Assembly: GCA_903877165.1 (NCBI GenBank)
Contig: CAIRCU010000032.1
Span: 16,747 to 80,746, forward strand
Direction of reading: 5' to 3'
Source: Methanobacteriota archaeon
GTDB lineage: Archaea; Thermoplasmatota; E2; DHVEG-1
Length of the DNA stretch: 64,000 bases
A program made the position numbers and the translations under genes. Below, in pieces: positions 1 through 56,075 of the stretch. Position 1 is the stretch's first letter. Each line of letters opens with the position of its first letter. Under the pieces are notes generated by a model that made no database searches, was not told the DNA's origin, and saw only the letters and a program-made list of their open reading frames with translations.

Positions 1-1013
1 GCTGCCGCGGCAGCCGATGCACTCGTCGGTCTTGAACTCGCAGGTCCCGCAGTGTCCTTGGAGGTACTGCTCGGCGAATCGCGCTCGTTTCATGAACGGA
101 TGGTCCATGGCCTGCTTCAAGGTCAACGAACCTTTCACTGAGGGGCGGACGTTGACGAAGTCGATGAGGACTGCGGCGCACGGCCGGGCATAGCCTTCGA
201 CTGTGATGCACATGCTGTATTCGAGCTGTCGGCATCCCGCGCCGACCAGGGGCGTGTGCACGTTCCAGTTCAACTTGTATTCTTTGTGGTCGATCTCGAG
301 GAGTTGGGCTTTGACTTCTTCGACTTCGGGGCCGGGGAGGACCCAGTCGAGGTGTCGTTTGGCTCGCCCGCTGGGTGTCATGGTTTCCATGTTGGGGAAG
401 ATGTTGTTGTCGCGGCAGAATCGCCACATCGTTGGGATTTCCTCTCGGGTCAAACGATTCAAAACGAAGGATAACCCGAGGCGTACGGTCGGTCCTTTCG
501 TAAACCCAAGGTCCATGAGGTTCTTCAGACCCGTCTCGATGTTCTTGTACGCGCCTTTCTTTCCCGCCATGAGGTCCTGGGTCGCCTCCGTGATTGAATC
601 ATGTTTCAGGAGGATTGACGCGTTGTTTTTATAGAGGAATTCAGAAAGCTTGCGATCCATGTTCTGTCCGTTGGTGATGATGACGGGGATCATGCCGAGA
701 CCGTGGATGATTTCAACGAGTTCTTTGAAGCGGGGGTAGACGGTGGGTTCGCCGCCGCCGATGATGACGACGGAGCGTGCACCGAGGTCTTTGGCCTGGT
801 GGACGATGTTTACGAGCTCTTCGTAGGTCATCTCGTTGTCTTTGGGTTCGCCGCTTTCGCGGTAGCAGTACTCACAGCGCAGGTTGCACAGAAGGCTTGT
901 TTCCAGACGCAAGGCAAGCAGACGGTTGCTGTCCCGGGCCTGCCTGGCTTCTTTGTTGCTGTAGAGGTACCCTTCGAGGACGGGAGGGTGGTGATACTGG
1001 ACAGTGGGCATTA
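1..1013 (-). CDS. radical SAM / SPASM-domain enzyme, anSME/peptide-maturase-like (partial; C-terminus runs off the window start)
   Basis: Manual minus-strand translation from ATG at ~1011-1013 reads MPTVQYHHPPVLEGYLYS... CNLRCEYCY (CX3CX2C) ... VVIIGGGEPTVYP ... C-terminal Cys clusters CRQLEYSMC..RPCAAV and GHCGTCEFKTDECIGCRG (SPASM-like). No stop codon before the window edge. Absent from the ORF track only because no stop lies in the window. Confidence 0.7.
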
Positions 1014-1202
1014 CGAGAAAATAGGTGTTAACCTAGATATAGTTTTTCTATAACGGCTCTTATTATTTTTTTAGGGGTATTTAATTTACTGGTGGAAAGG
1101 CGCTGTCGGTTTCTCATTTTTTGTTGTTCGCGACGGTCGTACTGGAGGTCTCTTTGTTATTGCCTTTGATTTGTAATTGTTAAATATATTCTTTAGAATA
1201 CA

Positions 1203-1210
1203 TTTAAATA
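1203..1210 (+). promoter_or_regulatory. putative archaeal TATA box (tttaaata) upstream of the PQQ-repeat protein gene
   Basis: AT-rich intergenic 1014-1255. The tttaaata motif sits ~45 nt upstream of ATG 1256. Confidence 0.3.
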
Positions 1211-1255
1211 ACTTATAAGTGCTTCTATCATTTAGCTTTCAGGGGGACAATAACG

Positions 1256-3073
1256 ATGGAAGCAATAACACGAAGAAGCGTCTTCATCTATGGAATTGTA
1301 TTTCTTTTACTTGGTACAAGCATTCCTTTACAGGTTCGCAGTGGAATGACTGAGTCTATGATTCTTAGTCACTCTGGAGATGGGAATTATGACAATAATC
1401 ATTCTACAAGCGATATAGATTGGTGGCCGATGTTCGGTCACGATCTTGCTCGTAGTGGATATAGCACGTCGAAAGCACCAAACACAAAAGAGTTGTTATG
1501 GAAATTCGATGCAGGAAATCCAATTTATTCATCCCCAACGGTCGCGGATGGAAAAGTGTTCATCAGCTCTCATGGTGAACCTAAAATGTTTTGCTTAAAT
1601 GCGACCGACGGCATGAAGTTGTGGGAATTCGCAAGCTCTGAAGATATGAGTGCCGCTGCTATCATAAACGACAGAGTCTACTTTTGCTCTGACACTGGTT
1701 ACGCTTATTGCTTGAATGAAACTACTGGAACTATCATATGGTCTCTGTTAACTGATTCAACGACTCAGTTAACCTCATCGCCTGCGGTCATAGATGGAAA
1801 AGTTTACTTTGGTTCAAGTTACCATAAAATGTACTGCCTCAATGCTGATAACGGGACAGTCATCTGGATTTTCAATACAGGAACAAATGGTTACGTTGGC
1901 TCTTCACCCGCTGTTGTCAATAACAAGGTGTTTTTCGGATGTCAAAACAAGAAGATATACTGCCTGAACGCGACTACAGGTACACAGATCTGGAATTATA
2001 CAACTGGAAATGAAATAGACCTTTCCACTCCATGTATATGGAACGACAAACTTTACATAGCCTCAGAAGACAGCGACGTGTATTGTATAAATGTCTCCAC
2101 TGGCGAAAAAATTTGGAATTACTCGACAGGAGGAACCCTGGATTCATCTCCCGTTATCGCCTATGGAAATGTCTATATCGGCTCCTGGGACTGGAAATTC
2201 TATTGCTTAAATGCAACATCAGGCATAAAAAAATGGGATTATTACATCGGAGACGTGGTACTATCCGCTGCCGCCGTCGCCGACAATAAAGTATACGTTG
2301 GCGCCCATCATCAATTATTTTGTTTCAACGCAACGACCGGAGTCAAAATTTGGGAGTACGCAACAGGAAACTATGTGTATTCATCTCCCGCCATTGCCAA
2401 TCGCAAGGTCTACATTGGCTCTACCGACCATAAATTCTACTGTTTTCGAGATAACCACAATCCCAATGCACCAAATTCTGCCTATCCATCAAATGGATCA
2501 ACCGAAATACCGCTCAAAATAAACCTCAGCTGGGCTGGTGGTGACCCAGATATCGAAGATACTGTGACGTACGACGTTTATTTTGGGACAGCCACTCCTC
2601 CATTAAAAGTTGCAAGTAACCTTACAACAACTACGTTCAACCCAGGGCCGCTCTGGTACAATACAACGTATTTTTGGAAGATAATTGCCTGGGATAACCA
2701 TCATGCATCTACCTCTGGGCCGATCTGGAAATTTACTACGATCAAAGACGTTACACCGCCCAGTGTTGAAATTTCACAGCCGAAGACCGGTTATCTCTAT
2801 TACAATGACCAAGAGATCATGAAAAGAATCTTTTCAAAAAATACACTTATCATCGGGCCATTGAACATCACCGTCAATTCCACAGATAACCAGACGGGAG
2901 TCAACCGTGTCATGTTCTATATTGATGACCTCCTTAGCGCGAAAATTACCTCAACTCCCTATACCTGGCTTTGGTCCCAAAAAATGTTTTTCAAACATAA
3001 AATTACGATTATATCCTATGACAATGAAGGCAATAGTAACAAGGTTGAATTATCTGTAGTCAAATTTCTTTAA
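1256..3073 (+). CDS. secreted PQQ-like beta-propeller repeat protein with C-terminal fibronectin-III/Ig-like domains
   Basis: N-terminal hydrophobic signal/anchor. About 8 tandem blades with recurring YCLNATTG(T/V)xIW / SSPAV motifs. C-terminal FN3-like segment (TYDVYFGT...WKIIAWD). Coding GC (~42%) is far below the window average (~60%). Confidence 0.75.
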   Translation: MEAITRRSVFIYGIVFLLLGTSIPLQVRSGMTESMILSHSGDGNYDNNHSTSDIDWWPMFGHDLARSGYSTSKAPNTKELLWKFDAGNPIYSSPTVADGKVFISSHGEPKMFCLNATDGMKLWEFASSEDMSAAAIINDRVYFCSDTGYAYCLNETTGTIIWSLLTDSTTQLTSSPAVIDGKVYFGSSYHKMYCLNADNGTVIWIFNTGTNGYVGSSPAVVNNKVFFGCQNKKIYCLNATTGTQIWNYTTGNEIDLSTPCIWNDKLYIASEDSDVYCINVSTGEKIWNYSTGGTLDSSPVIAYGNVYIGSWDWKFYCLNATSGIKKWDYYIGDVVLSAAAVADNKVYVGAHHQLFCFNATTGVKIWEYATGNYVYSSPAIANRKVYIGSTDHKFYCFRDNHNPNAPNSAYPSNGSTEIPLKINLSWAGGDPDIEDTVTYDVYFGTATPPLKVASNLTTTTFNPGPLWYNTTYFWKIIAWDNHHASTSGPIWKFTTIKDVTPPSVEISQPKTGYLYYNDQEIMKRIFSKNTLIIGPLNITVNSTDNQTGVNRVMFYIDDLLSAKITSTPYTWLWSQKMFFKHKITIISYDNEGNSNKVELSVVKFL

Positions 3074-3122
3074 ATCGAACTACACTGTAAAATAAAAAAT
3101 AGTAATCTTCAGAATTGCGACG

Positions 3123-3210
3123 GGAGAAAAAAACCGATAGAACCTACCTTTCTTGCCCTATTAACTGCAATCCCTTCGAGAATCGAGAAAGAGCTCGTTG
3201 AGAGATGAAC
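3123..3210. repeat. imperfect direct repeat copy 1 (~75% identical to 5226..5309); contains a degenerate tRNA-Pro 3'-end-like segment (gagctcgttgagagatgaac)
   Basis: Manual alignment. gagaaaa..cgatagaacc.ac.ttt..ccctattaac..aatccct...gagaa...cgttgaga.tgaac is shared with the region immediately 3' of and overlapping the tRNA-Pro gene. Confidence 0.5.
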
Positions 3211-3295
3211 AATGCTAAAAATGAGGGAGTCTGGTTGAACGGGATTGGTGCCACGAACATCCTGTCTTTGTCAAGGATGAAGACGGAGGACTTTC

Positions 3296-4174
3296 TCAAT
3301 GTTTCGGTTTCACAGCTACAACGGTTCCGAAATGAATGATTTTCGCTAATCCGAGCATGTCGCCGATGACGACGGCCCCCATGTAGAAATAATCATCATT
3401 TTCCGGTCTGTATTTTTTCCCAAGCAAGAGTCGTTTTATCACGGAAGCGGTGAAAAAGTACGGACCCAGGCACGTTGATCGTGCGACCGATGGTAGGATT
3501 GTCTTCGTCAGGTCTTCTACGACGACGTCTTCGAACCCATTTTTTTCAAGCAAGGTCTTGAGGTCTTTCAGGCTGATGAGGTCTGGGAATCCTCTGGCTG
3601 GACGCCAAATGTCGAGGACTTTGCGGCTCAATGATGTGAGCGGTTCATCCCGGATGAACCCGTCAAGGATGACAAACCGGCCGCCAGGCTTAATGACTCG
3701 ATACATTTCCCGAATCATCTCTTCCTTGTTCTGGGCGTAGTTATGGGACTCTTGGGCAAAGGCGCCGTCAAAATAGTTATCAGGAAACTCCGTGTGACGA
3801 TAATTCTGCAGCAGGAATTGTGTATTGTTTGTGACTCCTTCTCGTCTCGCTAACTCCTGGGCGAGCGGAATCTGATTTCGCGTAATGGTGATGCCGATGA
3901 AGGTGCTCTTTGGGAAGAGCTTCGCCAGCTGCGTCGAGGGCCCGCCGACCCCGCAGCCCGCATCGAGAATCACCCAGGATTTATCCTCAGAGATTCCTAG
4001 CAATTTACCGGCATAGTAATTCATGTAGTGCAGCGATTCGTCGAAGGAATGAACTCCTTTAACATGCATGCCGAAGTGGATAGCATGCGCATCATCGCCC
4101 TGCCACCACTTGACGAAATGCGGCCAATGACGTTCGTAGAAATCTTCTACCCCGGATTCAGGATTGTCTCCCAT
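3296..4174 (-). CDS. class I SAM-dependent methyltransferase (gamma-tocopherol/MPBQ/sterol-MT-like)
   Basis: VILDAGCGVGGPSTQLA motif I. N-terminal FYERHW...W..H.G and C-terminal IKPGGRFVILD segments are typical of the gamma-TMT / Methyltransf_11 group. Confidence 0.7.
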   Translation of the reverse strand: MGDNPESGVEDFYERHWPHFVKWWQGDDAHAIHFGMHVKGVHSFDESLHYMNYYAGKLLGISEDKSWVILDAGCGVGGPSTQLAKLFPKSTFIGITITRNQIPLAQELARREGVTNNTQFLLQNYRHTEFPDNYFDGAFAQESHNYAQNKEEMIREMYRVIKPGGRFVILDGFIRDEPLTSLSRKVLDIWRPARGFPDLISLKDLKTLLEKNGFEDVVVEDLTKTILPSVARSTCLGPYFFTASVIKRLLLGKKYRPENDDYFYMGAVVIGDMLGLAKIIHFGTVVAVKPKH

Positions 4175-5435: not shown

Positions 5436-5720
5436 ATGAACATCGACGTCATCACGCTCCTCGGCGTGGCTGCCGGCGCCGTCACCTCCATCGGCTTCAT
5501 CCCGCAACTGCTGAAAGGCTACCGCACGAAACGCCTCACTGACGTCTCGTACGGCATGCCACTGTTCCTCACGTTCGGTATGAGCCTCTGGCTCGCCTAC
5601 GGACTCTTCCGTAACGACCTCGCGATCATCCTTGCGAATGCCTTCGGCGTCAGCTGCAATCTGCTCCTCGTCATACTGAAACACCGGTACACATCCAACG
5701 ATAAAACTGACAATTCTTAA
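5436..5720 (+). CDS. SemiSWEET / PQ-loop (MtN3-like) small membrane transporter
   Basis: 94 aa with three TM helices. PQ motif GFIPQLLKGYRTK after TM1. Confidence 0.55.
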   Translation: MNIDVITLLGVAAGAVTSIGFIPQLLKGYRTKRLTDVSYGMPLFLTFGMSLWLAYGLFRNDLAIILANAFGVSCNLLLVILKHRYTSNDKTDNS

Positions 5721-5795: not shown

Positions 5796-6425
5796 ATGAA
5801 TGAGAATCCACCTGCGGCCCGCCGGAAAACAACCATGGCGGTCATCCTCATCAAGCTCATCTCCAACACCTTCTGGGAGATAGCGGACTACTTCTCCTAC
5901 AGAAGTAAAAGCGCAGCCCGGCTCTACGACACCATGATCGGTGGCGAGTACCAAGAGGAGTACGAACATTGCGGCGTCGCCAGTGCCAAGAACATCCTAC
6001 ACATCGGCTCCGGTGCATACCCGCTTACCGAGATGGCGCTCGCCGCGGTCAGCAACGGCCAGGTCGTCGGCATCGACAAGAAACCCGCGACCGTCGCCAA
6101 AGGCACCAAAGTCATCCAACGCCGCGGCCTCTCCAACCATATCACCATCCAGCATGGCGACGGCAGAAACTATCCCGTCTCCAAGTACGATACGATTATC
6201 GTCTCCAGCTGCAGCATCCCAAAGATTCCAATCCTAGAACACCTCGCCAAAGCCGCGCAACCCAAGACGCACATCATCGTCCGGGAAGTCGACATCGCCT
6301 GCCCCTACATCGAAGACTTCCTCGCCTCTCACCCGAACATGGTGATCTCCGACCGGATCCGACACAACCCCTTCCCATTCATCTACCCCATCGGTTGGAT
6401 GACATTCCGGATTCAGAAACAATAA
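5796..6425 (+). CDS. putative SAM-dependent methyltransferase-like Rossmann-fold protein (paralog of 10923..11576)
   Basis: ILHIGSGAYPLTE (Gly-rich motif I), VVGIDKK (acidic post-I), IQHGDGRNYP, DTIIVSS. Motif-for-motif match with 10923..11576. Directly upstream of a UbiA gene. Confidence 0.45.
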   Translation: MNENPPAARRKTTMAVILIKLISNTFWEIADYFSYRSKSAARLYDTMIGGEYQEEYEHCGVASAKNILHIGSGAYPLTEMALAAVSNGQVVGIDKKPATVAKGTKVIQRRGLSNHITIQHGDGRNYPVSKYDTIIVSSCSIPKIPILEHLAKAAQPKTHIIVREVDIACPYIEDFLASHPNMVISDRIRHNPFPFIYPIGWMTFRIQKQ

Positions 6426-6466
6426 GATTATTAAGACCTCTAGGTTGTTTTTCCCCCTAACTACCC

Positions 6467-7480
6467 ATGACCCAAGAGCCCACCCGACCACGCTTCTTCC
6501 ACAATCCCTTACATTTCCTGGTGACCTGGAGATCGTTTCCCGTCTATGAGCTCCTCGGCTATATCTTCATGTTTTCAGCTTCTATCATGTTTGCGTTCGG
6601 CATCCATCGCTACGCCACACAGGACTACATCGTTATCATCCTTTCCGTGGCGACTATGTACTGCGGGTTCTTCGCCGCACTCATCTGGAATGATATCACG
6701 GATCAGGATATTGACACCGTCGTTCACCCGACGCGCCCCATCCCAGGCCGGCGTATTTCTCCCAAGACGTTCTTCGGGATAGCTTTGGTGTTCTCCGCCT
6801 TGACCTTCCTCTTCGCACTTATTCTCAGTCCATGGTGCTTCATTTTGGTGGGCGCCGCTGCGTTGTTCACCGCGGTCCATAACCGCTACTTGAAGAGACT
6901 CATCAAACTCCCGGCGTACTCCGAGATCTTCACCCCGGTGCAATGGCTGGTCGTCCCCCTGTTCGGGTTCTTCGTCGTCTGGACGGTTCTGCCACACTCC
7001 GCTGACATGTTCTTCACCCTGCCCTTGCTCGGCACGCTCTCCATAGCGAAGGCGGATCTGCTACCGATGGCGCTGCTGGTGCTGTTCACATATTTCGCGG
7101 ATGATGCACATGATGTCGCGGAAGGCATCCGTGACATGGAAGGCGACCGCATCTTAGGCGTGAAAACCTATGCCATTTCGTTTGGGCCACGGACCGCGGC
7201 CGCCGTGTCCTTCAGCATGGTCGTTCTCGCCGGCATCCTCGGCATCCTCCTGTACTATTTCACGCTCCTCTCAGAGGTCTTCCTCATCCCGTTCCTCATC
7301 TTCTGGGCGTACACCCTCATCTTTTTCTATCAACTCCTGAGAACAAAGGATCTGATACAACAAAAGAAGCTTGGGCGGATGGTCGGTCGAAAAGGCTACA
7401 ATTTCCTGTTGTTCTCTTACATCTTGATGTTCATCGATCTCGCTCTGCAGCTGACGCTGGCACTGTCTCGGTCCTGCTAG
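6467..7480 (+). CDS. UbiA-family prenyltransferase
   Basis: NDITDQDIDTVVHPTRPIPGRRISPK first Asp-rich motif. DDAHDVAEGIRDMEGD second motif. About 8 TM helices. Confidence 0.75.
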   Translation: MTQEPTRPRFFHNPLHFLVTWRSFPVYELLGYIFMFSASIMFAFGIHRYATQDYIVIILSVATMYCGFFAALIWNDITDQDIDTVVHPTRPIPGRRISPKTFFGIALVFSALTFLFALILSPWCFILVGAAALFTAVHNRYLKRLIKLPAYSEIFTPVQWLVVPLFGFFVVWTVLPHSADMFFTLPLLGTLSIAKADLLPMALLVLFTYFADDAHDVAEGIRDMEGDRILGVKTYAISFGPRTAAAVSFSMVVLAGILGILLYYFTLLSEVFLIPFLIFWAYTLIFFYQLLRTKDLIQQKKLGRMVGRKGYNFLLFSYILMFIDLALQLTLALSRSC

Positions 7481-8403
7481 TGCTGCGGAGATAAGAGTCT
7501 GACGAGGAGGGCCATCTGCGCCCACAGCCGGTTCTCTGCTTCATCAATGATGACGGACTGAGGGCCGTACGCGACGTCTTTGGTGACTTCTTCGCCGTAA
7601 CAGATGGGCATGCAATGCATGAAAATTGCATCCGGCTTCGCCTTCTTCATGGTCTCCTGAGTGATGGTATAGTTCTTGAAAGCCTTGAGTCGTTCTCGGC
7701 GCTCGTTTTCGTACCAGAGAGAAATCCAGGTGTCGGTCGCGACAATGTCTGAGCCGGCGACCGCGGCAAGGTCCTCGGTAATGGTCACAGACCGTTTCTT
7801 TTTTGCAGCGACTTCCTTGGCCGTGCGGATATAGTAGTCCTGCGGCCAGTATTTCTTTGGTGAGATGACCGTGACGTCCATACCCACCATAGCGCAACCA
7901 AGCATGTAGGAATGGGTGAGGTTGTCATCTCCATCTCCGATGAACGTAAAATGCAGGCCTTGGAGTCGGCCCTTTTTTTCTTTGATGGTCTGGAGGTCTG
8001 CGAGGATCTGACAGGGATGTTCGAGTATGTCCAAACCGTTGATGACCGGAACAGTAGCGTAGGTCGCGAACTCCTGAAGGTTCTTCTCTTCTATGGCACG
8101 GTACATGATAATGTCGGCATAACGGGAAATGACCAAGGCGATATCCTGGGGGGATTCCCGGGTACCGGTGCCGACCTCTTCTTGTGAGAGGTAGACTGCA
8201 TGGCCGCCCAGCATGGTCATGCCGACTTCGAAGGAGACCCGGGTGCGCGTCGAGGCGCGCTCAAAAAGCATAGCGAGGGTTTTACCTGGGAGGTATTGGA
8301 TCGGTTTGCCTTCGTGCTTCTCTCGTTTCAGCTGGATAGCATGGTCGATGATGAATTCGATGTCGTCTTCGACATCGAGGATGGAGAGGATGTTTTTCTT
8401 CAT
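7477..8403 (-). CDS. ornithine-carbamoyltransferase-family transcarbamylase (SMG motif replaced by SLW)
   Basis: STRTRVSFEVGM carbamoyl-phosphate motif. HPCQILADL. FIGDGDDNLTHSYMLG. FMHCMP (HCLP-like). The ornithine-binding D-x-x-x-SMG position reads DTWISLW. Confidence 0.7.
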   Translation of the reverse strand: MKKNILSILDVEDDIEFIIDHAIQLKREKHEGKPIQYLPGKTLAMLFERASTRTRVSFEVGMTMLGGHAVYLSQEEVGTGTRESPQDIALVISRYADIIMYRAIEEKNLQEFATYATVPVINGLDILEHPCQILADLQTIKEKKGRLQGLHFTFIGDGDDNLTHSYMLGCAMVGMDVTVISPKKYWPQDYYIRTAKEVAAKKKRSVTITEDLAAVAGSDIVATDTWISLWYENERRERLKAFKNYTITQETMKKAKPDAIFMHCMPICYGEEVTKDVAYGPQSVIIDEAENRLWAQMALLVRLLSPQH

Positions 8404-8462
8404 GAAAACCCGGCTCCTTTGAAACCCCCTGATGTATATTAACGTTGTGAAGAACGTACCTC

Positions 8463-9779
8463 TTAGTCTTCAGGGAGGATGGTCTCGCGCGGGATCCTGG
8501 TAACGTCGAGAGATTGTCTTGTGTATGAGACTCGTGGGCGTGGCGCGAGCTGCAGGGTGGTTGAGGATTTTTTCTTCCGAGGATGGGATTCGATGTCGAT
8601 GGTGATCCCAAGGCCGTGTGGCGGTTTGAGGATGGTGAGATGGACTGCGGTGTGGCCATGGCTTGGGGAGTGGCGCAGCGGTACGTTCTTGCAGAGTCCT
8701 TGAAGCGCGGTAGTCTGGCCGTCGTCGGTGAAGGTGCCGTCGACGCGGCCGGGTAGTTCACAGAGGATGTAAGCGCGGAAAAATTTCTGTTGGGTCGGGA
8801 TGTCGATGTATTCGTAGCCGTCAGTGGTGGAGGTGAACCGTAACTTGATGGTCTTGTTGCCGAGTTTGCCGGTGACTTCCATGTCGCTGGGGTAGTAGAT
8901 GTCGTAGTCTTTGAGGTAGATGACTTTGGTGTATCTGAAGTGGACGTCGCAGAATTCCCAATATTTTTTCCCGTCTGGGGTGACGTAAAGGGTGCCGAAG
9001 GCTGGTCCGTCGTTGACCCATAGGAGGCTGTTGCCGAAGAAGAAGCTCCAGCCGTTGTCGCAGACGCCCCAGAGCCAGTCGTAGCCCAGCATATTGTTCT
9101 CGGTGGCGAAGCCGATACGGCTGGGGAGACGGTGGTGGTGCTGTGAGAACCACCAGTAGAAGAGGCGCAGGTACGTGTCCAGGGTCGTGCGCATGCCGCT
9201 CAGTCGTTGCAGGGGTTTTTCGTACGACCAGTTCCCGTACGCATGTTCGAGGTAGCCTTTGCCGTCCAGCGTGAAGGTCTTACCCTGCAGGGTCATGGTG
9301 CCGGTGAGGGCGCAGTGGGGGATGAACCCGTAGCGGTAGTGGTTGAGGCCGATGGGGAGGATGCCGTTGGTGGTCTCCTGGGTGATCCAGTGCGGGAGGG
9401 CCCGGGCGTCCATGTCGATGTCGGTGCTAAAGCCTTTGGCGTCGTCCTGGTGGTGGAGGTGGTACTTGGGGTACAGCCCCTGGAACGTGGTCTGCTTGTA
9501 TCGTAGGTCGATCCTGTTTTTCGTGGTGGTCAGTTCGCTAAGGTTGTCGTTGAGGTCCTTGTGTAGGACGCATTTTCCTGTGGTGAGGTCGATGAGGACG
9601 TATTGGAAGAAGCAGGAGGGCGGATCTTGGGTGACTGCGAACGATGTCATGAGGTTCCAGGTGTGCTGGTCATCGCGTGTGGTGAAGAAGAGTTCGGACG
9701 TCCACCATTCCTTCTTGATGGGGTGGTGGTCGCCTTCGTCTTGCGGCGTCCAGGGGTTCGCTGGTTCCATGGGTTCCAT
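8463..9779 (-). CDS. hypothetical protein, possibly CrtC/AttH-like (lipocalin-like hydratase fold)
   Basis: N-terminal KKEWWTSELFFTT segment resembles the EWWY motif region of the CrtC/AttH family and the REWWYFTAVF of 15702..17051. W/Y-rich beta-type composition. Lies between UbiA gene clusters. Confidence 0.35.
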   Translation of the reverse strand: MEPMEPANPWTPQDEGDHHPIKKEWWTSELFFTTRDDQHTWNLMTSFAVTQDPPSCFFQYVLIDLTTGKCVLHKDLNDNLSELTTTKNRIDLRYKQTTFQGLYPKYHLHHQDDAKGFSTDIDMDARALPHWITQETTNGILPIGLNHYRYGFIPHCALTGTMTLQGKTFTLDGKGYLEHAYGNWSYEKPLQRLSGMRTTLDTYLRLFYWWFSQHHHRLPSRIGFATENNMLGYDWLWGVCDNGWSFFFGNSLLWVNDGPAFGTLYVTPDGKKYWEFCDVHFRYTKVIYLKDYDIYYPSDMEVTGKLGNKTIKLRFTSTTDGYEYIDIPTQQKFFRAYILCELPGRVDGTFTDDGQTTALQGLCKNVPLRHSPSHGHTAVHLTILKPPHGLGITIDIESHPRKKKSSTTLQLAPRPRVSYTRQSLDVTRIPRETILPED

Positions 9780-9828: not shown

Positions 9829-10866
9829 TTGTCACTTGAAGGGAGGCTCTTAAGATTTATATGCGATTCACGAATTCGTAAGACCCTTGAGAGACGCGAG
9901 AGGATGACGATTTCTACGAAATTATTCGCTCATCTTGAGGCCATGCGGCCGTACACCCTGCTGTGGTGCGGTCTCGTCAGCCTCACAGGCGCAGTCCTCG
10001 CATCGCAGACGCTGCCTACTACGGCGGCCCTGATTTTCCTTGTCCCCATCCTCGGCTGGATCGCAGGGTTGTACCTCGCGGATTATTCCGACCGAAATTT
10101 GGACCGCATCCAAAAACCACACCGTCCGATCCCCTCCGGGCGCATCAAACCAAGCGAGGCGCTCCTCGTCGGCGCCGTCTTCGCCCTCGTAGGGCTTGCG
10201 CTCACCTTCATGCTCAGCCTGATAAACGTTCTGCTGACCTTCCTTGCCGCCGGCCTCGTCTACGTGTACGCCCGCTGGACGAAACCACGAGGCCTCCTGG
10301 GGAATCTGACGAGGGGGCTGCTGACCATGACGACGTTCCTCTTCGGCGTCGCCGCCGTCCACCCCGTGTCATCGTTGTCCCTTCCGATATGGATTGTCGC
10401 CGTGGTCTTCTTCATCCATGACACGAACAGCAACATCATCGGCGCCCTGAGGGACGTGACCGGAGACCAGGCCGCCGGTTGCACCACCACCCCGGTCCGC
10501 TACGGCATGCACATCGCGCTGCTCATCTCCCTGGGACTCACCCTCCTCTACCTCGGCATCACCATCACCCTCGTTGGCTCTAGCACCCTGCTCTCCTACC
10601 CCTCCTTGTTTTTTCTCATCCTAAGCCTGGGAATCGTTCTTCTCGGTATCATGTATGTCCTCCTCTTCCATTCGATCCACGCGCCATCCCAAGGACGAAT
10701 GCTACGTGCCCATGAGCTGTTCGTCGGCGAGCGCATCCTGTTCGCCTCCGCGTTCATCGTCGGATTCTTCGGTCTCACTGCATTCGCCGTCATCCTGACC
10801 GCATCCTGTCTGCTGCTCACCCTCCTGTCGCAGCACCTCTTGCGCAAACGCTACGAACTCACGTAA
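9829..10866 (+). CDS. UbiA-family prenyltransferase
   Basis: DYSDRNLDRIQKPHRPIPSGRIKP motif. Second motif HDTNSNIIGALRDVTGD. Polytopic membrane protein. Confidence 0.7.
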   Translation: MSLEGRLLRFICDSRIRKTLERRERMTISTKLFAHLEAMRPYTLLWCGLVSLTGAVLASQTLPTTAALIFLVPILGWIAGLYLADYSDRNLDRIQKPHRPIPSGRIKPSEALLVGAVFALVGLALTFMLSLINVLLTFLAAGLVYVYARWTKPRGLLGNLTRGLLTMTTFLFGVAAVHPVSSLSLPIWIVAVVFFIHDTNSNIIGALRDVTGDQAAGCTTTPVRYGMHIALLISLGLTLLYLGITITLVGSSTLLSYPSLFFLILSLGIVLLGIMYVLLFHSIHAPSQGRMLRAHELFVGERILFASAFIVGFFGLTAFAVILTASCLLLTLLSQHLLRKRYELT

Positions 10867-10922
10867 CCCCAGGGTGGAACCAGCACCTTTAAAGCACCCG
10901 TACCATATCTCAAGAGGGAATC

Positions 10923-11576
10923 ATGCCGTCCTCATTCATGACTCGCGTCTTCTCCCTTGCCCACCGGGTCGTCTTCCAAGAGGTCGGCAACAAGATTCCG
11001 ACGAACGCTCTGAAAACACTCATGGACCTCGGCTTCATTGTTTTTGAAAAAATGGGCGTCAAATTCCCTGCCATCTCCAACATATACCTGCGGTTCTACG
11101 AATCAGTCGTCCAACAAGAAGCGATGCTCGCCCAGGTCTCCAAAGGAGACAGCGTCCTCGTCATCGGCAGTGGCTCGCTGCCGGCGACGCCAATCCTCAT
11201 CGCGCGGTACACCGACGCCCACATCGTCTCCATCGACCGGGACCCCCAGGCCGTGAAAGCCAGCACCGAGTACATCCGCCGCATCCACCTCGACGACCGA
11301 CTCACCATCGCCTACGGCGAAGGACTCACCTACCCCGCCAAGGACTTCTCCGCCGTCTTCATCCTCTACGGTGTCAAGAACACACAAGCGGTCTTGGCCT
11401 CACTCCCCGACAGGATCTCGGACCATTGTCGCGTGATTCTGCGTCTCATGAGCGATAAGAACCACCAACTCCTCGACGACCTCGACATCACCAGCTACTT
11501 CACCATTAAAAAACAGGTGCACACGACCGTGCTTGGTTCGTTCGAAGCACTCCTACTTGAGAAAAAAACAACCTAG
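10923..11576 (+). CDS. putative SAM-dependent methyltransferase-like Rossmann-fold protein (paralog of 5796..6425)
   Basis: VLVIGSGSLPATP, IVSIDRDP, IAYGEGLTYP, SAVFIL. Adjacent to a UbiA gene. Confidence 0.45.
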   Translation: MPSSFMTRVFSLAHRVVFQEVGNKIPTNALKTLMDLGFIVFEKMGVKFPAISNIYLRFYESVVQQEAMLAQVSKGDSVLVIGSGSLPATPILIARYTDAHIVSIDRDPQAVKASTEYIRRIHLDDRLTIAYGEGLTYPAKDFSAVFILYGVKNTQAVLASLPDRISDHCRVILRLMSDKNHQLLDDLDITSYFTIKKQVHTTVLGSFEALLLEKKTT

Positions 11577-11662
11577 AAGTGGAAATCCCGCTTGTAGTAC
11601 CGCCGGAACGTGTAGTTCGTCCCCCGGGGGAACGGATGGATGTCCGCTTGCTCTTTGATTGA

Positions 11663-52734: not shown

Positions 52735-55092
52735 GTGGGGAAGAAGATGAGAGCCACAAGATTTGTTTGGAAAGCAGCCGTTCTTGGAAGCGTCTTTCTT
52801 TGTTTAAGCAGCTGTTTTGCACCGGTACTTGCCCAATCACCACAATCACCCAGCACGGATCATCCAGTATTGTCAGGAGGAAACTCTGAAAAAACCGCTC
52901 AGGTGACCTGCTATGTCATCAGTTCGCAAGGAGTGAAACAACAACAAACATCGACACTCTCTAGAACTGATGCCGAATGGCTAATGGCAAAGCTTAAGAC
53001 ACTGCGCGCTGCGACATCCGGAAGTCCTTCAAACCCGATCTCCCTGCAGAACGAGGTTCTTTCGTTTGCTGAAACGCATCACCTCCTCCCGCAAGGCGTC
53101 TCTGCAGCTTCTCTATCCGCACAATTAGCGACCACACCAGAATTTGCTCGAAAACACCTTATCTTCCCAGCGAGCTTTGGGAGCACCTCGGAATGGGTCT
53201 GCAACTTCGCGACCACGGGCGAAGGATCCGCTAAGCCTATCATCATTCTCCCAAGATTAATCCCCATTCTTCTCATCCCGATTCCACGTGCGTTCGTATC
53301 CTGGTCAACCCCGGATGGGATCACTTCGGTCGGTGGGCTCATTTCTCACACAGGGTTCATCGCCTACGGAGTGCAAAAAGGGATCGCCTTGGGGTTCTGG
53401 GGTATCGGGTTCAGCATCTTCCTACCTCCAGTTGATGCCTACGGGATTTTCGGGTACGCTCTGTTCGCAAAAGTGACCGCTCAGTATTATGAGTTCTACC
53501 CGCCGAATAACCCACCGGAGATTACACAGACTGACCCCGCTGATGGCCAGCAAATGGTGCCTATGACGACGACGAAACTGCAGTTTAGCATCTCTGATTA
53601 TGATGGGGATCTCATGAGTTTCAACGTCACCACCAGCCCGGACATCGGTTCTGGGAGTGGTGGGTTAAAGCCTGGTGGCGTCTATTCCATCCCGGTCCAA
53701 GGCCTCCAAGACCTCACGCGATACACCTGGCGAATAACCGTGACCGATGGGAAAGACACGGTGAGTAAGACTCAATCCTTCATCACTGAACCAGTAGCTC
53801 CCATTATTTCGAACGTCCTCCCTGAGGATAATGACAACGCAGTCCCTGTGGACCTCTCGCAGCTGCAATTCTACCTGAAAGACTATCAAGGGGATGCGAT
53901 GAGCTATACGGTGATGACGTCTCCTGACATTGGATCTGGCTCTGGGACTAACATCCATGATGGTACGGTGACCATCCCGGTGCATGGCCTCACCATGGCT
54001 TCAGCCTATCGATGGTATGTAAATGTCACCGACGGGACGCATTGGAATCGTAAGGTTTTCAGGTTCCAGACCTCTTATCCTGAACAGTTCAATCCGTTTG
54101 ACTACGGCTGGCACTACAGAAAGACGCTGACGATTAATCATGAGCTGGTCGATGAGAGCCTCAGTAACTTCCCTGTGCTCGTGAGCATCACTGACAATGA
54201 TTTAAAACAGAAGGCGCAGACGGACGGCAGTGATATTTTATTTATGAACGCAACAGGCGTCTCCCACAAATCATATTTCGAAATCGAGACATATCAGGGG
54301 TCGACAGGCACGCTGACCGCATGGGTCAACATACCAACTGTTTCACCAGATGCCGATGTCACGTTCTATATGTACTACGGCAATCCCGATGCCCTCACCA
54401 TTGAGGAGAAAGAAAAGACGTGGGATAATAATTACCTGGTTGTTCAACACATGCATCAGGATTCGGCAGCGAACTTCAAGGACTCCACGCATTATCACAA
54501 CGACATTATTTCTCAGACCGGGAGTCCCTCGTATCAGCAAATAGGGAAAATTGGGTATTGCGTTGGTTTTCACGGGTCAGACGCCCTTTCCTTCGCCTCG
54601 TCGATCTATAATATAGCCCCTGCGACCGTTGAGGTCTGGGGAAAGACAGAGACGACCTCGTCGGATCAGTACCTGTTCTGTGATGGTGGTGAAACCAGTC
54701 GCTCCTATGGGTTCTATTGGTATATCCAAGGCGGCCAATTTGGCACCACGATGATGAACCTGCCGAAATGGGTCGGTCAAGATGGCATCGCGACTGCCGT
54801 GCCTGGCCAATGGTATTTCTGCGCGAGCACCTGGGACGGCACGGACTCCGATGGTCATTTCGTGATTAACGACCAGGTCTTTACGAAAACTAGCGGCATC
54901 GACAATCGGAATGAGCCCGCCAATAATGCGAAGATCGGGCAATGTTCTGAAGGTCAGTACGGGTTCCATGGTCTCATCGATGAAGTCCGATTGTCCAAAG
55001 TCGCCCGAGACGTGGGATGGCTGACCACCGAGTATACCAACTCTATCAACCCCACGGCCTTTGTCGTGGTCGGAGCAGAAGAGGGGCCTTAA
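52735..55092 (+). CDS. large secreted protein with two tandem Ig/FN3-like repeats, a DUF2341-like domain and a C-terminal LamG/concanavalin-like domain
   Basis: Signal peptide. Repeats FSISDYDGDLMSFNVTTSPDIGSGSGG... and FYLKDYQGDAMSYTVMTSPDIGSGSGT.... GWHYRKTLTINHELV...FPVLVSITD...YMYYGNPDA (DUF2341 pattern). WYFCASTWDG...IDEVRLSKVARDVGWLTTEYTN (LamG-type). Confidence 0.55.
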   Translation: MGKKMRATRFVWKAAVLGSVFLCLSSCFAPVLAQSPQSPSTDHPVLSGGNSEKTAQVTCYVISSQGVKQQQTSTLSRTDAEWLMAKLKTLRAATSGSPSNPISLQNEVLSFAETHHLLPQGVSAASLSAQLATTPEFARKHLIFPASFGSTSEWVCNFATTGEGSAKPIIILPRLIPILLIPIPRAFVSWSTPDGITSVGGLISHTGFIAYGVQKGIALGFWGIGFSIFLPPVDAYGIFGYALFAKVTAQYYEFYPPNNPPEITQTDPADGQQMVPMTTTKLQFSISDYDGDLMSFNVTTSPDIGSGSGGLKPGGVYSIPVQGLQDLTRYTWRITVTDGKDTVSKTQSFITEPVAPIISNVLPEDNDNAVPVDLSQLQFYLKDYQGDAMSYTVMTSPDIGSGSGTNIHDGTVTIPVHGLTMASAYRWYVNVTDGTHWNRKVFRFQTSYPEQFNPFDYGWHYRKTLTINHELVDESLSNFPVLVSITDNDLKQKAQTDGSDILFMNATGVSHKSYFEIETYQGSTGTLTAWVNIPTVSPDADVTFYMYYGNPDALTIEEKEKTWDNNYLVVQHMHQDSAANFKDSTHYHNDIISQTGSPSYQQIGKIGYCVGFHGSDALSFASSIYNIAPATVEVWGKTETTSSDQYLFCDGGETSRSYGFYWYIQGGQFGTTMMNLPKWVGQDGIATAVPGQWYFCASTWDGTDSDGHFVINDQVFTKTSGIDNRNEPANNAKIGQCSEGQYGFHGLIDEVRLSKVARDVGWLTTEYTNSINPTAFVVVGAEEGP

Positions 55093-55115
55093 TCAGATTC
55101 CCCCCTCTCTTCCCT

Positions 55116-56075
55116 TTATTTTTTCTTTGAAAGGATGAAGCATTGGCTATCGCCGAGATTGGAGAGAAGCAGGCTTGCGCCGAGGACTTTTCCGACCTTG
55201 AAGTTGCCTAAAATTTTCTTTGCTTTAAGGTAGTAAAGTCGATAGATATTCGAGGCGTAATCCCCTGACGAATAATGCTCCACCAGGAAGAAGGGGCGAG
55301 TAATGTTTAGGATCCCTTCCTTTGAAAAATTGAAAATATGCCGTGGGACACTATGACAAAGCCATTTTTTCCCGAATAGATGAGCCGGGAGGCTTTGACT
55401 GTTCGGGATTGACAACAAAAAGATGCCATTTTCTGATAAGCGTGCCGCGACGTCTTGAACCATTTCCTTAGGATCGGGGACATGTTCTAAGACATGACTT
55501 AGGACGATGAGATCGTATTGTCGTTCAGCGGGCAGTTCATGCAATTGAAGTTTTCTCATTGAGATGCCCACGGATTCGCCAAGCTTCTCAATGTTGGGAA
55601 AGATATCGATACCTTCGAGGTTACTTTTAGGAATTTGAAAATATTTGTTTAGGTTTTTTAGTAACGCGCCTCCTCCACACCCGACGTCCAAAACATGCTG
55701 AAAACTTCTCTCATGATGAACACAGTAATTTTTCAGGTCAAGAAGCCGGTTATCTACATCTTTACTAAATGCTTGGAAAAGGAATTTATCAATGACATTC
55801 ATAGTTCGGTTCTTTAGAAAGAATCTGTCCAGGTTCGTGTATCGAATCGTCGGGTCTTGTGGCTGATAAGCACCATAGCTTGAGGCGTTCATCTGATAAA
55901 AACTTGGAATTTCATCATCATCTGGTAAAGGATTTAAAAAATACGACCTGCAATGTGAACAGAGGTACAAATGAAATTCTCTGTTTGACGTATGAAACTC
56001 CTCATCCTTTGTCGTATAGCGAAGAGCAATGTTATTGCCGGCGCACAAAGGGCAGGAAGCAAGTGTCTTGGACAT
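55116..56075 (-). CDS. class I SAM-dependent methyltransferase with N-terminal C4 zinc-ribbon
   Basis: CPLCAGN...CSHCRSYF zinc ribbon. LDVGCGGGALLKNL motif I. Coding GC ~40%, well below the window average. Confidence 0.6.
   Translation of the reverse strand: MSKTLASCPLCAGNNIALRYTTKDEEFHTSNREFHLYLCSHCRSYFLNPLPDDDEIPSFYQMNASSYGAYQPQDPTIRYTNLDRFFLKNRTMNVIDKFLFQAFSKDVDNRLLDLKNYCVHHERSFQHVLDVGCGGGALLKNLNKYFQIPKSNLEGIDIFPNIEKLGESVGISMRKLQLHELPAERQYDLIVLSHVLEHVPDPKEMVQDVAARLSENGIFLLSIPNSQSLPAHLFGKKWLCHSVPRHIFNFSKEGILNITRPFFLVEHYSSGDYASNIYRLYYLKAKKILGNFKVGKVLGASLLLSNLGDSQCFILSKKK

Follow-up and report, generated by a model that had tools for sequence, protein, structure and literature searches.

Ornithine transcarbamylase (OTC) is separated from its relatives by two features, the motif DxxxSMG and the lysine of FxKxSxRT (PMC4581275). 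This lysine lies two residues before STRT and pairs with the α-carboxylate of ornithine. The putrescine transcarbamylase (PTC) of Enterococcus faecalis has another loop in place of the first feature, 227-DVWYGLY-233, in which Tyr233 lies "flat as a tile" over the site of the ornithine α-carboxylate, and swapping YGLY for VSMG makes ornithine preferred over putrescine (PMC3282769). PTCase, AOTCase, SOTCase and YgeW are all specificities that were once concealed beneath the annotation "OTC". Here, we analyzed a stretch of 64,000 nucleotides (hereafter, the window) of a Thermoplasmatota archaeon (contig CAIRCU010000032.1), in which the gene at 7477-8403 encodes an OTC-family transcarbamylase that reads DTWISLW at the DxxxSMG position. 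We refer to proteins of this kind as W-type. We favor, with a probability of roughly 55%, the view that they are neofunctionalised transcarbamylases, i.e., products of an OTC duplicate that would act on a different amine and be tied to the isoprenoid and S-adenosylmethionine (SAM) enzymes encoded in the same cluster. The gene and its motifs are the following:

7477-8403, minus strand: W-type OTC-fold transcarbamylase, ATG start, 308 aa, unknotted
7714-7734, minus strand: DTWISLW, at the OTC DxxxSMG position (direct translation)
8239-8259, minus strand: RASTRTR (direct translation)
8008-8019, minus strand: HPCQ (direct translation)
7606-7617, minus strand: HCMP (direct translation)

The motifs STRTR, HPCQ, HCMP and DTWISLW had been named in the original prediction, and each was recovered by direct translation. 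The protein has the Pfam domains OTCace_N (1.2e-44) and OTCace (3.6e-51), and its best solved relative is the OTC of Pyrococcus furiosus (1a1s, E 1.2e-77), relative to which the alignment shows no insertions. From 1a1s to the window protein, DVWASMGQE becomes DTWISLWYE, HCLPAHRG becomes HCMPICYG, GDG-NNVAHS becomes GDGDDNLTHS, and QLRRGETIADTARV becomes GTGTRESPQDIALV. The carbamoyl-phosphate (CP) site is intact (S51, T52, R53, T54, R102, H129, Q132, C264 and R292), and the ornithine ligands Asn167 and Asp231 of Escherichia coli OTC are kept as N161 and D224. The site of the second substrate is remodelled, with R49, D159, D160, L162, L229, W230, Y231, M265 and I267. Among these, W230 corresponds in the alignment to G237 of E. 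coli OTC and to Y233 of the E. faecalis PTC. Positions such as K53, G237 and L274 are given below in E. coli OTC numbering.

Structural modelling gave a confident, unknotted fold of the OTC/PTC kind. The alignment-based AlphaFold model (118 homologues) has a predicted local distance difference test score (pLDDT) of 95.8, a last helix at 288-304, and superposes on unknotted OTC and PTC structures with a template modelling (TM) score of ~0.9 (0.93 for PTC). Its top structural matches are all unknotted OTC or PTC structures. A single-sequence AlphaFold model was set aside (pLDDT 38).

The W-type clade and its canonical sister

The substitution is shared by a large clade. We took the best 120 homologues in a collection of 5.8 billion proteins (67-100% identity), which come from metagenome-assembled genomes (MAGs) of Thermoplasmatota and from metagenomes. 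Where these are given a functional name it is "ornithine carbamoyltransferase", and one member is only a "hypothetical protein". All 118 full-length homologues, which were used for the alignment, have S-x-W at the SMG position, so the SLW substitution is neither chance nor a sequencing error. The motifs of the clade are DTW(I/V)S(L/F/Y/I/M)W(Y/F), HCMPI, GDG(D/N)DN and FER-S-RT. A search from a divergent member, L017, listed 76 proteins, every one of them W-type and some shared with the first set, and the motif S/T-x-W was present in 235 of the 238 related sequences collected. The clade comprises at least 190 clusters at 90% identity, with members of 305-308 aa and a mean column identity of 70%. 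Its boundary is sharp: in an exhaustive HMMER scan of 1.84 billion cluster representatives the nearest others, apart from one fragment of the clade, do not exceed 50% identity and, with few exceptions, have DxxxSMG. At position 237, the 116 other representatives of the OTC family have Gly in 92% of cases and Trp in none (0/116).

The CP ligands S55, T56, R57, T58, R106, H133, Q136, C273 and R319 are invariant in the W-type proteins (118/118), as are D231, S235 and N167. The lysine of FxKxSxRT is replaced by Arg in all 118. It is kept by 93% of the representatives and by the whole sister clade (120/120), which was found as follows. Scanning the species genomes of GTDB yielded 21 W-type loci as well as one further homologue, L022 (CAZQMI010000102), whose protein is 54% identical to that of the window and canonical at all diagnostic positions (FEKSSTRTR, GDGRNNMANS, DTWVSMG and HCLPA). 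Searching with the L022 protein gave a second clade, of 120 Thermoplasmatota proteins (76-100% identity), all of which have K53, Q82, N166, N167, D231, S235, M236, G237 and L274. These proteins (L022/P0271 and relatives) are 53-55% identical to the window protein, and all of them come from low-GC relatives, the lineage of the window being high-GC. In a neighbor-joining tree (87 sequences, with E. coli PyrB as the root), the W-type and the canonical clades each have a bootstrap of 100, and their sisterhood one of 99. The canonical paralogue occupies a constant housekeeping site, between FEN1 and PurP.

Both paralogues were found in MAG CAZQMI01, which has a W-type gene inside the cluster described below (L020) and the canonical OTC on another contig (L022). 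Between these contigs, tetranucleotide usage correlates at 0.95. The peptide patterns of the genome scan match only one of the 120 canonical-clade proteins, and this one lies in a genome bearing a W-type gene, a suggestive hint of co-occurrence from a single genome. No further genome with both paralogues was matched through accession series or assembly identifiers, a search that is uninformative since the lists cover few named assemblies.

The two clades are fixed for different residues at 18 columns. At seven of these (K53R, N166D, M168L, G237W, L274M, A276I and F313I) it is the W-type state that is derived, since the canonical clade agrees there with the wider family. Six of the seven lie at most two residues from the published second-substrate ligands (K53, N167, D231, S235, M236 and L274; PMC4581275), a concentration with a hypergeometric p of 1.2e-6. 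More changes were found nearby in the W-type clade, where M236 has become F/L/Y, Q238 Y/F, R165 D and Q82 G, and where the 80s loop has gained an invariant Arg. As the CP ligands, D231, S235 and N167 are invariant, the pattern suggests an active enzyme in which the constraint on the second substrate has changed, and not one in decay. In addition, about eight pocket positions are fixed to a different state at once, and therefore the constraint would be changed rather than relaxed. The HCMP motif was also considered as a mark of specificity and ruled out, because canonical SMG OTCs (L024, L025 and L046) carry it too.

The remodelled loop has a second polymorphic position: query residue 226 (W233 of E. 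coli, the near-universal Trp of D-x-W) is His in 26 of the 118 W-type proteins. The STRTR motif also varies, reading SVRTH in L020 and ALRTR in L017. The latter (767-3555 of JBDRGF010000024.1, labelled Pseudomonadota) is a divergent W-type gene with DTWVTIWY and a possible N-terminal extension of 75 aa, whose next closest relative is only 68% identical. It is directly downstream of an Amidohydro_3 gene, adjoins a gene for a Sel1-repeat protein, and is the sole W-type gene found outside the UbiA cluster. Either horizontal transfer to a bacterium or an error of binning could explain it. As a lone divergent sequence without close relatives, it gives no usable second context.

Place among the described transcarbamylases

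The closest described proteins are OTCs, with the canonical clade as the nearest group and P. furiosus 1a1s and Mycobacterium tuberculosis ArgF as the nearest solved structures. The window protein has in common with them the unknotted two-domain fold, a length of ~305 aa, STRTR, HPCQ, HCxP, R106, R319, D231, S235 and N167. The OTC motif set of SxRT, HPxQ, HxLP, the β4 Arg and the C-terminal Arg is present (STRTR, HPCQ, HCMP, R102 and R292), Met for Leu in HCMP being also found among some canonical OTCs. However, the two features that define OTC, DxxxSMG and the FxKxSxRT lysine, are both absent. In the W type, SMG is replaced by S(L/F/I/Y)W and Lys by Arg, accompanied by N166D, M168L, L274M, A276I and Q82G, and the neighboring genes are UbiA, NAS-like and CrtC-like, not housekeeping or arginine genes.

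The PTC of E. faecalis (PtcA/AgcB; 4a8p, 3txx) offers the closest parallel for the loop. It is also OTC-derived and unknotted, has its SMG loop replaced and has lost the OTC lysine; its Y233 is at the position of W230, six residues after the conserved Asp, its L232 at that of L229, and its D227 corresponds to D231. However, PTC has YGLY where the window protein has ISLW, Gln50 and Gln164 where it has Arg and Asn, and a C-terminal helix 13 of ~20 residues that the 308-aa protein lacks. The lysine two residues before STRT, which is Gln in PTC, is Arg in the window protein, and the charge is thus retained. Membership in the PTCase group was rejected: only the third position of the signature (Y/W)(G/W)(V/L/I)X fits, the TIGR04384 score is 274.7 against a cut-off of 500, and helix 13 is missing.

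Other groups were rejected in the same way. For the knotted AOTCase, SOTCase and YgeW, the scores are 163.5 against 288 (NF003384) and 37-39 against 453-500 (YgeW models), and the best structures are unknotted. YTCase is knotted and has long insertions, neither of which is seen in the window protein. DPTCase and DBTCase have HDLP and (T/S)RWQ(T/S)(T/M)G, both absent from the window protein, which has HCMP and D224. Aspartate transcarbamylase is excluded by the absence of RxQxER in the 240s loop and by a TIGR00670 score of 149.6 against 236.95. The alignment proposed as a check of the original prediction shows several second-substrate residues that differ from those of OTC. Within the unknotted OTC branch, the W type is best classed as a specificity group of its own, so far uncharacterised and annotated as OTC wherever it is named. 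YTCase, DPTCase, DBTCase and UGTCase were recognised by motif departures and gene context ahead of their substrates, and the W type is at the same stage.

A 2015 review of the family gives HDLP as the mark of diaminopropionate and diaminobutyrate transcarbamylases. Five of the near representatives outside the W-type clade (P0121, P0136, P0145, P0165 and P0171) have a DxxxSMG loop and HDLP instead of HCLP, a combination that falls outside the rules of that review.

The gene neighborhood

The W-type gene lies in a conserved cluster, which in the window has the following members:

8463-9779, minus strand: CrtC/AttH-like lipocalin-domain protein, 438 aa, 59 nt upstream of the transcarbamylase; family in 19/21 loci
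6467-7480, plus strand: UbiA-family prenyltransferase, 337 aa, convergent with the transcarbamylase; most constant neighbor
5796-6425, plus strand: NAS/CntL-like SAM-dependent enzyme, 209 aa; same strand as the UbiA gene and upstream of it
5436-5720, plus strand: PQ-loop/SemiSWEET-like membrane protein, 94 aa; orthologues in 10/21 loci
9829-10866, plus strand: second UbiA-family prenyltransferase, DGGGP-synthase-like but below family cut-offs, divergent from the CrtC-like gene; start codon uncertain
10923-11576, plus strand: second NAS/CntL-like SAM-dependent enzyme, 217 aa
15702-17051, plus strand: CrtC/AttH-like paralogue, 449 aa, grouped by BLAST with the 438-aa protein

We compared the 21 W-type loci (the window and 20 that were fetched) after clustering all their open reading frames (ORFs). 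UbiA and NAS/CntL-like genes are present in all 21 loci, within ~2 kb of the W-type gene (median distances of 1.2-1.9 kb), CrtC-like genes in 19, genes for B12-binding radical-SAM proteins in 15, and PQ-loop genes in 10. The neighboring proteins are only 25-70% identical to those of the window, L002, L016, L019 and L020 deviate in gene order and orientation, and beyond the cluster the loci have altogether different genes. Given this divergence, these rearrangements and these different surroundings, the clustering seems to be maintained and not merely inherited. Contigs of further assemblies show the same layout of CrtC-like, NAS-like, transcarbamylase and convergent UbiA genes.

The flanking UbiA genes announced in the original prediction are thus those at 6467-7480 and 9829-10866, both on the plus strand. 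The absence of an arginine-biosynthesis context was borne out as well: no domain of arginine biosynthesis or of the arginine-deiminase pathway was found among the ~48 larger ORFs scanned in the window, and none of the compared loci showed a gene for arginine biosynthesis, arginine deiminase, agmatine deiminase or carbamate kinase. Farther out, the window has MenA-like and UbiE-like genes, an ATP-citrate-lyase-like pair, and genes of the archaeal mevalonate pathway (AcnX, UbiD and a GHMP kinase). The profile of the NAS/CntL-like family hits staphylopine CntL at 4.6e-21 and thermonicotianamine synthase at 6e-12, well ahead of methyltransferases (2e-6 or worse).

The description of the upstream gene as CrtC/AttH-like holds for the family, in which 9 of 18 members match the CrtC N-terminal lipocalin domain PF07143 (best 1.8e-6), but not for the window copy itself, which has no match. 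A search of the PDB with the 438-aa protein gave nothing with the single sequence, and with a profile only a "Putative AttH" at E = 0.14. The 449-aa paralogue, 6 kb from the 438-aa gene, also has no Pfam match and adjoins the AcnX mevalonate-pathway genes. The transcarbamylase, for which co-transcription with the CrtC/AttH-like gene had also been proposed, lies 59 nt downstream of it on the same strand. In this gap (8404-8462, minus strand), the sequence TTAATATA precedes the ATG by ~33 nt and GGAG precedes it by 12-15 nt, and the two may be an archaeal TATA box and a ribosome-binding site. Given the TATA-like TTAATATA, the transcarbamylase may have a promoter of its own.

At its other end, the transcarbamylase gene overlaps the convergent UbiA gene, and the two stop codons share the palindrome CTAG (7477-7480). 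The same 3' overlap, of 4-18 bp, is found in L001, L003, L004, L006-L008, L018 and L058-L064 and is thus kept across many species. It leaves no room for a terminator between the two genes. The NAS/CntL-like and UbiA genes form two mirror-arranged pairs (5796-7480 and 9829-11576, both on the plus strand) around the CrtC-like/transcarbamylase pair, and the duplication of these pairs must be old, since their SAM enzymes are only ~18-20% identical.

The window has no B12-binding radical-SAM gene in the cluster, but the spacer at 11577-11662 (minus strand), between the NAS/CntL-like and ATP-citrate-lyase-like genes, encodes ...GTNYTFRRYYKRDFHF*. The peptide GTNYTFRRYYKRDFHF corresponds to the C-terminal ~19 residues of the B12-binding radical-SAM protein encoded at the same place in the closest relative, L001 (...GTNYTFRRYYKKDFGF). 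The lineage of the window thus appears to have deleted this gene, of which a C-terminal relic would remain. Finally, two segments, 2001-4000 and 54001-56000, have a GC content of 0.45-0.47, whereas most of the window is at ~0.57. The latter segment takes in the 3' portion of the gene for a surface-type protein of 785 aa (Laminin_G_3/DUF2341), as well as ~885 bp at the start of a gene for a methyltransferase. Both low-GC segments may have been acquired.

A proposed change of second substrate and its alternatives

If W-type proteins are neofunctionalised, their history would start with the duplication of a canonical OTC within sediment Thermoplasmatota, including the MAGs SM1-50, M9B2D and M11B2D, which we take to belong to Marine Benthic Group D. 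The SMG paralogue would have continued to serve arginine metabolism. The W-type enzyme would be active, trimeric, unknotted and CP-dependent, binding CP as OTC does, through STRTR, R102, HPCQ, C264 and R292, and an incoming primary amine would attack the carbamoyl carbon, with phosphate leaving. The ornithine α-carboxylate pocket would have been rebuilt by K53R, R165D/N166D, M168L, M236L/F, G237W, Q238Y/F, L274M and A276I. The amine itself would be made by, or destined for, the co-clustered UbiA, NAS/CntL-like (resembling aminocarboxypropyl-transferases), CrtC-like (hydratase-type) and often B12-radical-SAM enzymes.

The pocket gives some indications on this amine. Because Trp is at the position of the PTC Tyr233, the substrate is most likely, by analogy, an amine without an α-carboxylate or with a displaced one, and the two added Asp beside N161 also argue for an amine lacking a normally placed α-carboxylate. 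An amino-acid-like head group could still be accommodated, given the retained D224, S228, N161 and R49 and the new Arg of the 80s loop, and the numerous replacements by hydrophobic and aromatic residues would be in keeping with an amphiphilic substrate. A doubtful but specific extension places the enzyme in an undescribed pathway, in which it would cap the amine of an isoprenoid lipid bearing an aminocarboxypropyl or aminoalkyl group. In such a scheme, the UbiA enzymes would build or elongate an isoprenoid or ether-lipid intermediate, the CrtC-like protein would hydrate it, and NAS/CntL-like enzymes would then add the aminocarboxypropyl or aminoalkyl group, whose free amine the W-type enzyme would carbamoylate to give a ureido-bearing archaeal lipid or isoprenoid. 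L/F229, W230, Y/F231, I267 and Y269 would sheathe the non-polar part of this substrate. We found in the searchable literature no description of the W-type clade or of its gene cluster, and nothing relevant on carbamoylated archaeal lipids, NAS+UbiA clusters, or arginine metabolism in Thermoprofundales.

A different substrate would have several implications. Reconstructions of the arginine pathway would be wrong at the OTC step for widespread sediment archaea, and the curated NCBI equivalog model would need an exception rule. The constant neighbors (two kinds of UbiA, NAS/CntL-like, CrtC-like and B12-radical-SAM enzymes) point to an uncharacterised modification of isoprenoids or lipids, in uncultured archaea whose lipids serve as sediment biomarkers. 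If the lipid scheme were true, this would be the first OTC-family enzyme for a lipid-linked or amphiphilic amine. The two sister paralogues are also a natural experiment on the residues that set second-substrate specificity in OTC-fold enzymes.

The proposal in the original prediction that specificity may differ from that of ornithine is therefore supported in part, by the invariant clade, the canonical sister, the assembly with both types, the clustering of changes in the pocket and the conserved non-arginine context, and is weakened by the restriction of the co-occurrence to one MAG and by the tolerance of OTC to single substitutions. Several observations indeed weigh against a changed substrate. 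The protein passes the OTC equivalog cut-offs (TIGR00658, 352.7 against 280.85; NF001986, 365.4 against 306). It keeps D231, S235 and N167, which hold the α-amino/carboxylate end of ornithine, and R49 preserves the positive charge of K53. The W-type and canonical genes occur together in one MAG only, where contamination is possible. Synteny within one archaeal group can in part reflect shared descent, and no source of CP is encoded in the cluster. Finally, a yeast-growth scan of 1,570 variants of human OTC showed comparatively high tolerance at residues 265-280, which include SMG, and gave values of 0.95 for K88R, 0.71 for N198D, 0.94 for M268L, 0.59 for L304M, and, at the glycine itself, 0.53 for G269V, 0.75 for G269R, 0.83 for G269E and 0.88 for G269A (bioRxiv 10.1101/2022.10.26.513893). 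Since human OTC tolerates such single equivalents, a change in the SMG motif alone is no proof of lost OTC activity. The scan covered single substitutions, G269W and combined changes being outside its set. The growth assay saturates at modest enzyme activity.

Much of this evidence (the equivalog scores, the conserved CP ligands with D231, S235 and N167, the tolerance at K88, N198, M268, G269 and L304, and the single MAG with both types) would be expected if W-type proteins were still genuine OTCs, either as a second isozyme or as the sole OTC of some lineages, with an SMG-loop variant that is specific to the lineage and leaves the substrate as it was, and with lipid neighbors that are unrelated or co-inherited. 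We regard this as the main alternative and a serious one, though appreciably less probable than a changed substrate. The missing arg neighbors do not discriminate between the two in these archaea, because the canonical paralogue is also without an arginine-gene context. On the other hand, a genuine OTC is hard to reconcile with Trp237 in 0/116 representatives, SMG in 120/120 proteins of the sister clade and the shift of about eight pocket positions. A bulky aromatic at the same position excludes ornithine in PTC, the tight clustering with UbiA and NAS-like genes persists in 21/21 loci despite rearrangements, and a fully canonical OTC co-occurs in CAZQMI01. The original prediction was to be abandoned if genuine OTCs of close relatives shared SLW and the genome had no other argF. 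The outcome is divided: close relatives, be they genuine OTCs or not, do share S-x-W, but the genome of one of them has a separate canonical argF.

Marine Benthic Group D, to which some of the MAGs with W-type genes are assigned, consists of archaea that degrade detrital protein by fermentation. A catabolic enzyme resembling PTC, which would phosphorolyse an N-carbamoyl diamine or polyamine (e.g., N-carbamoylputrescine) into CP for the production of ATP, with neighbors that are unlinked, could account for the aromatic at the Y233 position, the Leu/Phe at the L232 position, the loss of the OTC lysine and the two extra Asp before N161, which would suit a cationic substrate. We consider it unlikely, as the signature, helix 13, the Gln positions and the TIGR04384 cut-off of PTC all fail, and agmatine deiminase and carbamate kinase genes were seen in none of the loci.

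The presence of a divergent OTC paralogue in a conserved non-arginine cluster, with a canonical OTC elsewhere in at least one genome, also recalls ArgK, the OTC isozyme of the phaseolotoxin cluster. By analogy, the W type might be a self-resistance isozyme in a biosynthetic cluster whose product inhibits OTC. This seems very improbable, since the cluster consists of membrane prenyltransferases adjoining mevalonate-pathway and ATP-citrate-lyase genes, and is without an ATP-grasp or peptide ligase, an amidinotransferase or other genes for ornithine-analogue toxins. Least probable of all is an inactive or regulatory OTC-fold pseudoenzyme, to which the loss of hallmark specificity residues and the ALRTR and SVRTH of L017 and L020 could be ascribed, but which is contradicted by CP-binding and catalytic residues (S-x-R-T, R106, H133, Q136, C273 and R319) that are invariant in 118 members, by the high conservation of the clade and by the confident fold model.

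Departures from SMG are not restricted to the W type. Among the other representatives of the OTC family, small groups have His in place of the Gly or Tyr in place of the Met: P0168, P0235 and P0242 read SMH or GMH, and P0220, P0224, P0251 and P0263 read SYH or SYG. These may be further unrecognised specificity variants.

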